Below, in pieces: positions 7,400 to 13,719 of a stretch of DNA of 64,000 bases (its first letter is position 1; each line of letters starts with the position of its first letter). The notes below the pieces were generated by a model. It was not told the origin of the DNA. It searched no databases and saw only the letters and a list, made by a program, of their open reading frames with translations. The DNA is taken from positions 22,229 to 86,228 of IMG/VR virus record IMGVR_UViG_3300020172_003394; one strand, written 5' to 3'. The stretch is from a virus. A program made the position numbers and the translations under genes.

Positions 7400-7433
7400 C
7401 TTGTCGTATTTATTTTTCACAAACGAGGTTATT

Positions 7434-7691
7434 ATGAATTTGACACCGAATGATAAGTTGAAGTTGGAAGCAGCACTGAAGGATATGGCTACGTCTATGA
7501 CACGGGTAGCAGCAGAACGCGACCTACAGAAGAATGTGATTGGAGACATCTGTGAAGAACTCCAACTCAATAAGAAGGTGTTCCGTAAGTTGGCACGTGT
7601 GTATTACAAGCAAAACTTTGATGACGAAGTTGCAACGCATCAAGAGTTTGAAACCCTTTACGAGACTGTAACGCAAACTACTAAGCCCTAA
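7434..7691 (+). CDS. T4 DsbA-like double-stranded DNA-binding protein
   Basis: KKVFRKLARVYYKQNFDDEV...FETLYE; GAGG RBS before ATG 7434. Confidence 0.7.
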   Translation: MNLTPNDKLKLEAALKDMATSMTRVAAERDLQKNVIGDICEELQLNKKVFRKLARVYYKQNFDDEVATHQEFETLYETVTQTTKP

Positions 7692-9573: not shown

Positions 9574-9658
9574 GGACAGTTGGCTGAGTGGTCTAAAGCA
9601 GGAGATTACTAATCTCTCGTACTGAAAGGTACCGTGGGTTCGAATCCTACACTGTCCG
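9574..9658 (+). tRNA. tRNA-Ser(ACT)
   Basis: GGACAGT/ACTGTCC-G73, long V-arm, GGAGA-TTACTAA-TCTCT. Confidence 0.9.
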
Positions 9659-9674
9659 TTTAATGGAGATTGTT

Positions 9675-9785
9675 ATGGCAACACATAAAAGAAAAGGACA
9701 TACTAGAAAGCCAAGAAAATCTTGGCAAGCTAGTATAAAAGTAAAATCAACAACTGTTAAAAATCCGCGCAAAAAACGTAAATAA
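9675..9785 (+). CDS. 36-aa highly basic peptide
   Basis: GGAG RBS; MATHKRKGHTRKPRKSWQASIKVKSTTVKNPRKKRK. Confidence 0.6.
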   Translation: MATHKRKGHTRKPRKSWQASIKVKSTTVKNPRKKRK

Positions 9786-9808: not shown

Positions 9809-9837
9809 TTGACAATCGGCAGTCCACTAGTTATATT
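9809..9837 (+). promoter_or_regulatory. sigma70-type promoter
   Basis: GGGC-TTGACA-N17-TATATT-ACT. Confidence 0.8.
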
Positions 9838-9854
9838 ACTGGTGTAGGGTAAAC

Positions 9855-9928
9855 GCCTCCATAACTCAATTGGTCAGAGTAGCTGGCTTTTAACCAGTAA
9901 GTTCTAGGTTCGAGTCCTAGTGGGGGCA
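9855..9928 (+). tRNA. tRNA-Lys(TTT)
   Basis: GCTGG-CTTTTAA-CCAGT. Confidence 0.95.
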
Positions 9929-9957
9929 CTGTTGATTAACAATAGAAGGTCAGTTGT

Positions 9958-10140
9958 AGAGCTTACCCGTGGTAGGAGAATCCCCACGCTACACGATTCA
10001 TCCAAGCGACCCTTACGTGAAGTATCACTACAACGATACAGGGGAAGTATCCGTAAGTAGTAGTCCTCGTGTTTAGACAAACGTTCGGTGAGGATGGCAC
10101 CAACGATAATAGGTAAGTTCTTCTCTATAAAATGAGAGGA
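9958..10140 (+). ncRNA. candidate structured ncRNA B (multibranched)
   Basis: closing AGAGCTTACC/GGTAAGTTCT with at least 5 nested helices; no ORF in the track. Confidence 0.6.
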
Positions 10141-10159
10141 TACAATAAGTCATCCATAC

Positions 10160-10242
10160 GCCCTGGTGGTGGAATGGCATACACAGAGCACTTAAAATGC
10201 TCCGGTCTTACGACCTTGCGAGTTCGAGTCTCGCCCTGGGCA
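10160..10242 (+). tRNA. tRNA-Leu(TAA)
   Basis: GAGCA-CTTAAAA-TGCTC, long V-arm. Confidence 0.95.
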
Positions 10243-13499: not shown

Positions 13500-13718
13500 T
13501 ATCCGAGGCCTTTACCCTACCTTTCACCTCGTTAACAGCCTTCGGGCGAATGGAAAGTCTTTAAAATGATAGGGCGGGGCTGGAGTCGTTATGACCAGAC
13601 ACGTTTGACTAGTTTGGTGTATGGATAAACTAGTAGGCGGTTGGGGAAACTTGACGGAGTTGTGTGTCCGCCTAAATACTTGTAATAAGTGAGTTGATAT
13701 CTCACAACACATCCCCCA
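13500..13718 (+). ncRNA. candidate structured ncRNA E
   Basis: GCC-TTCG-GGC, ACTAGTTT/AAACTAGT, TAGGCGG/CCGCCTA, GTGAG/CTCAC; GC-rich; abuts tRNA-Gln. Confidence 0.5.
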
Positions 13719-13719
13719 T

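Follow-up and report, generated by a model that had tools for sequence, protein, structure and literature searches.

The question raised by this locus is what kind of gene lies in the 230-nt gap between tRNA-Lys(UUU) at 9855-9929 and tRNA-Leu(UAA) at 10160-10242, and what its product might do. The sequence analysed (the window, 64,000 nt) originates from an 86-kb IMG/VR virus record with an estimated completeness of 48%. Tailed-phage genes are present in the window (baseplate, portal and large terminase), and its first 15 kb carry 29 tRNA genes, every one of them on the + strand. Comparison with relatives confirms window 9953-10155 (+) as the predicted gene for a structured noncoding RNA (ncRNA) housed in this gap. 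Judged from sequence, this ncRNA belongs to a family not catalogued before, approximately 205 nt in length and residing in the tRNA arrays of an uncultured clade of freshwater tailed phages. The existence and the structure of the ncRNA are considered solid. The elements of the locus, in window coordinates, are as follows.

9809..9837, + strand: sigma-70-like promoter match TTGACA-17-TATATT, upstream of tRNA-Lys; 11 of 12 consensus positions
9855..9929, + strand: tRNA-Lys(UUU), without encoded CCA; upstream neighbour in groups A and B
9930..9952, + strand: A+T-rich spacer, weakly conserved, outside the conserved fold
9953..10155, + strand: conserved core of the ncRNA, 203 nt; covariance models R1-R3, pair counts, no conserved ORF
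9953..9959 with 10028-10034, + strand: pseudoknot PK1, 5' strand GUUGUAG with the P5 loop; helix 1, 98.5% paired, 3 covarying pairs
9961..9967 with 10112..10118, + strand: P1, closing helix; helix 2, 98.4% paired, 3 covarying pairs
9968..9988, + strand: P2 hairpin (9968-9972/9984-9988); helix 3, 100% paired
9989..9995 with 10068..10076, + strand: P3; helix 4, 91% paired, 4 covarying pairs
10008..10017, + strand: 5' strand of P4; helices 5 and 6
10008-10010 with 10063-10065, + strand: P4a
10012-10017 with 10052-10057, + strand: P4b; 100% paired, 4-5 of 6 pairs covary
10023..10038, + strand: P5 hairpin (10023-10026/10035-10038); helix 7, 100% paired, 4 of 4 pairs covary
10039..10051, + strand: purine-rich conserved single strand CAGGGGAAGUAUC; GGGAA nearly invariant
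10082..10105, + strand: P6 hairpin (10082-10090/10098-10105); helix 8, 100% paired, 4 covarying pairs
10106..10111, + strand: junction AURAUA from P6 to the 3' strand of P1; 10109-10111 invariant, G 10112 belonging to P1
10119..10140, + strand: P7 hairpin (10119-10125/10134-10140), abutting P1 directly; helix 9, 99.6% paired, 3 covarying pairs
10150..10155 with 10092-10097, + strand: proposed pseudoknot PK2, 3' strand in the tail UCAUCC; complementary hexamer in 39/39
10160..10242, + strand: tRNA-Leu(UAA), constant downstream neighbour

Conservation and fold of the RNA

Homologues were collected by three routes, namely a search of IMG/VR with the neighbouring proteins as bait, a scan of IMG/VR and the JGI metagenomes with a pattern from the hairpin GUGAGGAUGNCAC, and a second IMG/VR pattern independent of that hairpin; all candidates were screened with covariance models. 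In total, 39 distinct homologues were obtained, all from uncultured phage or metagenome contigs, with identities to the window copy of 74-87% in group A, 64-69% in group B together with two intermediates, and 48-58% in group C, 48% being the lowest value. Exactly one copy is present per contig in five of five large contigs. The neighbouring 374-aa protein shares only 37-40% identity between groups A and B, and the ncRNA is therefore better conserved than the protein. Additionally, a covariance model rebuilt from groups A and B alone (R3) recovered every group C member, with scores of 102-127 bits. Habitat labels of DNA runs containing at least half of the sampled words were freshwater, lake, sludge, lagoon and marine, runs with small word shares being uninformative on habitat.

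Beyond these contigs, a pattern scan of prokaryotic genomes gave at least 120 chance matches, with 0 of 80 confirmed by covariance model, and megablast against 50,697 phage records returned tRNA fragments only. The ncRNA is known from no cultured phage. Judged by the large terminase, the nearest cultured phages are Flavobacterium phage immuto and Microcystis phage Mel-JY01 (approximately 52% identity each), both of which lack the ncRNA, as do more distant phage contigs that share the neighbouring methyltransferase. A 16-bit match in LR756508 was discarded, consisting merely of the word UGAGGAUGGCA with tRNAs absent nearby, and a literature search found no description of the ncRNA.

The fold common to the 39 homologues (alignment A8) contains 54 base pairs in nine helices and is modelled as seven helices, P1-P7, about a multi-branch core, with the two pseudoknots in addition. 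Standard pairs occupy 97.8% of cells, whereas column shuffles give 83% and sliding the partners by 1-3 columns gives 34-44%; compensatory change on both sides is seen in 30 of the 54 pairs, the covariation score is 0.47 versus 0.20, and the observed pairing and covariation values were reached by 0 of 500 shuffles; as the alignment was fitted to the model, all of these figures lean towards the model. The slid controls and the cross-group search with R3 argue that the signal is nonetheless real. P4b, P5 and P6 are paired in every sequence, and nearly all of their varying pairs change by compensation. The third stem pair of P6, for example, occurs as G-C, A-U, C-G or U-A, and the middle pair of P2 as G-C, C-G or U-A, the P2 loop usually containing NGGA. 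G-U pairs are abundant (e.g., in 13, 15 and 21 sequences at three pairs) and the opposite strand would have A-C mismatches in their place, which identifies the + strand, also the strand of the tRNAs, as the functional one. The ncRNA is not coding: in each frame some member lacks an open stretch longer than 14-23 codons, and the homologue lengths of 200-211 nt are not spaced by multiples of three.

The conservation of single-stranded positions is equally part of the fold, with 25 invariant unpaired bases located mostly in AGGAUGR, GGGAA, A-AAA and AUA. The 7-nt P6 loop AGGAUGR (10091-10097) is identical in 39/39 members. Four of these were retrieved without the loop as bait and carry A-U, C-G or U-A as the third P6 pair; since AGGAUGR is kept in them, its invariance does not stem from the way the members were retrieved. 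The purine-rich strand CAGGGGAAGUAUC opposes UGAGA (GAAG in the window copy) over an internal loop.

Both ends of the ncRNA are predicted to be tied into this fold by the two pseudoknots. PK1 ties the first seven bases to the 8-nt loop of P5, a pairing predicted from the alignment and proven by covariation: the loop heptamer is present in all members and covaries with the 5' strand, giving the four variants GUUGUAG/CUACAAC, GUUAUGG/CCAUAAC, GUUACGG/UCGUAAC and GUUGCGG/CCGUAAC. An alternative outer helix from RNAalifold, which paired the 5' GUUGUAG with a 3' CUACAAC, was rejected, the 3' copy being absent from groups B and C. PK2, the pairing of the 3' tail with the P6 loop, is likely. The tail measures 14-24 nt, and its hexamers matching the loop GGAUGR are CCAUCC, UCAUCC, CUAUCC, UUAUCC, CCGUCC and UCAUCU, such that pairing survives every change (a C replaced by U facing G, an A replaced by G facing U, and U facing the loop G/A); where the P6 loop ends in A, the opposing tail base is always U. 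PK2 is not rated as proven because the loop never varies and a true double change therefore does not occur. The initial annotation, made from the window sequence alone, had suggested that TCATCCA, which occurs twice, could pair with GGATG. This holds for the 3' copy, whose TCATCC (10150-10155) is compatible with GGATGG (10092-10097) in 39/39 members, whereas the first copy (9998-10004) is not conserved.

The helices proposed in that annotation could not be judged from the window copy, which by itself does not outperform shuffled sequences in folding (z = -0.97 for the + strand, -0.49 for the - strand), and the case for each of them rests on the homologues. Covariation among the 39 homologues supports CGTGG/CCACG (P2), GTATC/GATAC (P5, in its core 10023-10026/10035-10038) and the trailing hairpin (P7), as well as CTTACG/CGTAAG (P4b), where the annotated register was right and that of RNAalifold wrong. 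The register UUAC/GUAG around 10013-10016, which was drawn by RNAalifold and the covariance model along with a mini-hairpin GGA/UCC, is 82% paired and broken in group B; the CUUACG/CGUAAG register that replaces it is 100% paired. The annotated closing helix (9958-9967/10112-10121) is retained in its inner seven base pairs (P1), which covary, whereas its outer three base pairs are unsupported, being in competition with the pseudoknot at the 5' end and the hairpin at the 3' end. Two helices were abandoned: GTGA/TCAC is not conserved in homologues, and opposite an unchanged GAGGAT the homologues show ATCAAC in place of GTCCTC. With respect to extent, annotated as 9958-10140, the RNA is real, with its 3' end at approximately 10155-10159 rather than 10140.

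Genomic context and related RNAs

The tRNA-Leu(UAA) gene starts 0-7 nt after the last position of the model in 38 of the 39 members, while the upstream side changes. In group A and the intermediate L074 the upstream neighbour is tRNA-Lys(UUU) at 14-29 nt, in group B it is tRNA-Lys(UUU) at 1 nt, and in group C it is tRNA-Ser(ACU) at a distance of 111-276 nt, in some loci with a small basic-peptide gene between. Across the relatives with tRNA-Lys upstream, the counterpart of the spacer 9930..9952 accordingly measures 1-29 nt. In group B the ncRNA occupies the entire inter-tRNA gap, leaving 1 nt after tRNA-Lys and 0 nt ahead of tRNA-Leu, which places its maximal extent at approximately 210 nt. 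The bases at the junction with tRNA-Leu are unconserved except for a pyrimidine at -1, which is what an ordinary RNase P site would show. The constant placement before tRNA-Leu may derive in part from shared descent.

One member departs from this arrangement. In L211 (1486-1900, +), a hairpin and a Cys-rich HNH-like ORF lie behind an intact ncRNA, and there is no tRNA-Leu(UAA) within the next 1.2 kb, an arrangement that may reflect an endonuclease-driven replacement. The ncRNA thus persists without its usual neighbour, which favours an independent function over a pure leader role and indicates that RNase P is not the sole route to its 3' end.

Transcription likely starts from the promoter match at 9809-9837, giving a transcript with tRNA-Lys, the ncRNA and tRNA-Leu. 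A consensus promoter upstream had been pointed out in the initial annotation, and TTGACA-17-TATATT is indeed found there, with tRNA-Lys intervening before the ncRNA. Metatranscriptome contigs of relatives (three river and freshwater runs) bridge tRNA-Lys and the ncRNA; these contigs, possibly DNA-derived in part, carry no information on ends, strand or level and show no more than presence in RNA libraries. Their starts, at 9830-9842 in three of four runs, lie close to where transcription is expected to begin, which is a weak hint, and the contigs stop inside the ncRNA at 10098-10104, a stop without meaning.

Several observations were made on the flanking genes. The tRNA-Leu(UAA) at 10160-10242 (+) contains one non-standard acceptor-stem pair, read here as U5/U68, which cmscan flags. 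A tRNA-Ser with the unusual anticodon ACU (A34) lies at window 9574-9658 (+); it is found upstream of the ncRNA in all three groups and is therefore not a sequencing oddity of the window. Between them, at window 9675-9785 (+), a gene with a good ribosome-binding site encodes a Lys/Arg-rich peptide of 36 aa (MATHKRKGHTRKPRK...) that is 75-97% conserved, and this gene is located 94-177 nt upstream of the ncRNA in most group A and some group C loci. The peptide may be an RNA-binding partner of the ncRNA or a matter of plain synteny. As an obligatory partner it was rejected, the gene being missing at this position in L002, L014, L074 and group B; none was found in four whole contigs searched, with a tool that may miss 36 residues. 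In group C loci, e.g., L039 upstream of 8814 (-), a conserved motif UUGACAAGUGAAGGGAAGU stands immediately before the ncRNA. Its spacing is wrong for a promoter, and in group C the ncRNA may include it as an additional 5' element.

Comparison with catalogued RNAs gave no family for the ncRNA. At the gathering threshold, none of the 4227 models of Rfam 15 matched 9930-10159, and at E values up to 10 only short fragments of 14-18 bits appeared in this gap; nothing was returned over six homologues (E up to 5) or over the ncRNA of L214 (E up to 0.01). ARAGORN and RF00005 found no tRNA, tmRNA or T arm between 9930 and 10159. The bacterial, archaeal and type T models of RNase P RNA did not match, and the conserved P4 strands of that RNA (GAGGAAAGUCC ... 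ACAGAA..CGGCUUA) are absent from the ncRNA consensus. For Y RNA, YrlA matched only on tRNAs in six homologues, and the five ncRNA-bearing contigs inspected (47-72% complete) yielded neither a TROVE gene nor the RVT_1 reverse transcriptase by which a retron or DRT would be recognized. The designation of unknown class in the initial annotation therefore stands, with no match to a known family and strong covariation.

The ncRNA is not a group I intron. In the relative L214, the tRNA-Leu(UAA) next to the ncRNA is split. Its 196-nt intron (L214:5250-5445, -) lies between U34 and A35, with exon 1 starting from L214:5480, and was detected by RF00028 with 60.6 bits against a threshold of 50. With the detected intron serving as an internal control, RF00028 gave nothing on the ncRNA 30 nt upstream, and the local alignment score of the ncRNA with the intron is at or below the shuffle mean. 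The intron and the ncRNA are thus tied to the same tRNA and occur side by side in L214, but the intron sits in the anticodon loop, whereas the ncRNA lies outside the tRNA, between two intact tRNA genes in the window rather than inside one. In cyanobacteria and plastids, U34/A35 is the classic site of the tRNA-Leu intron, and the position of the L214 intron hints at a cyanobacterial connection for the phage clade.

For fifty years, T4 species 1 and 2 have stood as examples of extra stable RNAs carried in the tRNA arrays of phages. These are stable RNAs from the T4 tRNA operon transcript (PMC2330249). Like species 1 (rnaC) and species 2 (rnaD), the ncRNA lies within a phage tRNA cluster, flush with a tRNA and on the same strand, and for the T4 RNAs, too, the role is still unsettled. 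In contrast to them, the ncRNA is larger and has two pseudoknots, lacks the tRNA-like T arm in which rnaC ends, and precedes tRNA-Leu, whereas those of T4 come after a tRNA, where the operon ends. Model R2, run with filters off on the T4 tRNA region, gave nothing above approximately 0.6 bits at rnaC/rnaD (L210 909-1172). GOLLD (RF01998) and ROOL (RF03087) are reported as large, complex, conserved RNAs that in phages and prophages often lie near tRNA genes, partly from lake metagenomes (PMC12286853). They resemble the ncRNA in being ornate, strongly conserved, adjacent to phage tRNAs and without an assigned function, but they measure several hundred nt versus approximately 205 nt, and the RF01998 and RF03087 models do not match. 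By kind, T4 species 1 and 2, GOLLD and ROOL are the closest known RNAs; by family, the ncRNA belongs to none of these.

Possible roles of the RNA

Large many-helix pseudoknotted RNAs with invariant unpaired bases are usually ribozymes, ligand sensors or cores of ribonucleoproteins, and each new class of this type is a candidate for new RNA biochemistry. The present family offers a well-defined case, with exact boundaries, a fold checked on 39 sequences, the model R3 and a constant partner in tRNA-Leu(UAA). The nine helices, two pseudoknots and 25 invariant unpaired bases point to specific recognition or catalysis rather than to a spacer.

It is moderately likely that the ncRNA is a trans-acting stable RNA or a component of a ribonucleoprotein. 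According to this proposal, whose processing steps are modelled on the established pathway for bacterial tRNA operons, the promoter at 9809-9837 would drive one transcript containing the ncRNA and its flanking tRNAs. The 3' end of the ncRNA would then arise by RNase P cleavage at the 5' end of tRNA-Leu(UAA), and 3' maturation of the upstream tRNA, which has no encoded CCA, would free the 5' end by an endo- or exonucleolytic step followed by trimming. The terminal pseudoknots would halt further trimming, such that a discrete stable RNA would persist and take on a trans-acting role during infection, the most likely mode being the binding of a protein or another RNA by the invariant AGGAUGR, GGGAA, A-AAA and AUA. 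No partner protein or target was found.

Alternatively, the ncRNA could be a cis-acting 5' leader that controls the maturation, folding or level of tRNA-Leu(UAA), for instance by showing or hiding the RNase P site, and that has no role after cleavage. The position 0-7 nt upstream of this tRNA in 38 of 39 members, whatever the upstream neighbour and including the intron-split tRNA of L214, agrees with such a leader, as does the location of the PK2 3' strand just 3-13 nt from the RNase P site. Nevertheless, a leader is rather unlikely: approximately 200 nt with nine helices and 25 invariant unpaired bases exceed the needs of any known tRNA leader, the bases at the cleavage site are unconserved, and L211 retains an intact copy with tRNA-Leu absent behind it.

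The same size, pseudoknots and invariant unpaired bases are typical of catalytic RNAs, and the description of the ncRNA in the initial annotation as ribozyme-sized is fair, with catalysis being conjectural. A new-class ribozyme, either self-cleaving or acting on a neighbouring tRNA precursor, is distinctly unlikely. HDV-like ribozymes measure approximately 50-200 nt, adopt a nested double pseudoknot (P1-P2-P3-P1.1-P4) and cleave at the first base of P1. The HDV-family models did not match the ncRNA, whose topology instead is a multi-branch fold with two loop-to-terminus pseudoknots, and no other Rfam ribozyme model resembles it. Theta ribozymes are reported as small ribozymes that adjoin phage tRNAs (bioRxiv 10.1101/2023.06.13.544163), which lends the ribozyme reading some support; they share with the ncRNA the pseudoknotted fold, the place beside phage tRNA genes and the pairing of 5' terminal bases with an internal strand. 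However, the small theta ribozymes are built on the nested double pseudoknot of HDV, whereas the 5' strand of the ncRNA pairs with a hairpin loop in a multi-branch fold. Furthermore, neither end of the ncRNA carries a conserved junction sequence where cleavage would be needed, and host RNase P together with tRNA 3' processing would be enough for its release.

Dedication to tRNA-Leu(UAA) would explain the fixed position before this tRNA despite the changing upstream side. A new functional RNA class of this kind, a ribozyme or ribonucleoprotein core that would process, modify, protect or otherwise act on the tRNA or its precursor in the course of infection, is regarded as quite improbable.

The GGA motifs displayed in loops (AGGAUG in P6, NGGA in P2 and AGGAU after P7) recall CsrA/RsmA sites, being similar to the CsrB repeat CAGGAUG and the SELEX consensus of CsrA, and the ncRNA could accordingly serve as a protein sponge. 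This is very improbable. AGGAUGR is invariant in 39/39 members, including the four found without loop bait, and NGGA is present in the P2 loop of most members, but the P6 loop is predicted to be occupied by PK2, P2 of L013 and L015 lacks GGA, and the remainder of the elaborate fold would be left unexplained. In addition, the nearest cultured relatives infect Flavobacterium and Microcystis, hosts that may lack CsrA.

Control of downstream genes by a riboswitch or another 5' regulatory element is scarcely plausible. The size of the ncRNA and the closing helix beside a 3' hairpin recall an aptamer with its platform, and a U run comes after the 3' hairpin in group C; however, this run is missing in groups A and B, no Rfam riboswitch matched, and in place of a 5' UTR before a constant class of gene the ncRNA has a tRNA rather than an ORF downstream, with the genes beyond differing by group. 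Finally, a non-functional decayed tRNA, intron remnant or small protein gene, as the location in a tRNA array and the group I intron in the adjacent tRNA-Leu of a relative might suggest, is effectively refuted by compensatory change in 30 of 54 pairs, by the lack of tRNA or tmRNA signal, conserved ORF and intron similarity, and by RF00028 detecting the intron and not the ncRNA at the same locus.

Other conserved elements of the window

Two further stretches of the window were considered as RNA candidates. The stretch at 7401-7691 (+) is 81-95% conserved across groups A and C, above most neighbouring genes, and was rejected as an RNA, being really a small ORF of approximately 85 aa (MNLTPNDKLKLEAALKD...). 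The stretch at 13503-13717 (+), flush upstream of tRNA-Gln at 13719, is a second, unrelated candidate for a conserved structured RNA: it has five distinct homologues with 80-86% identity, for which RNAalifold gives 49 pairs, 8 of them compensatory, and it also ends in ...ACAUCCCCC immediately before the tRNA.
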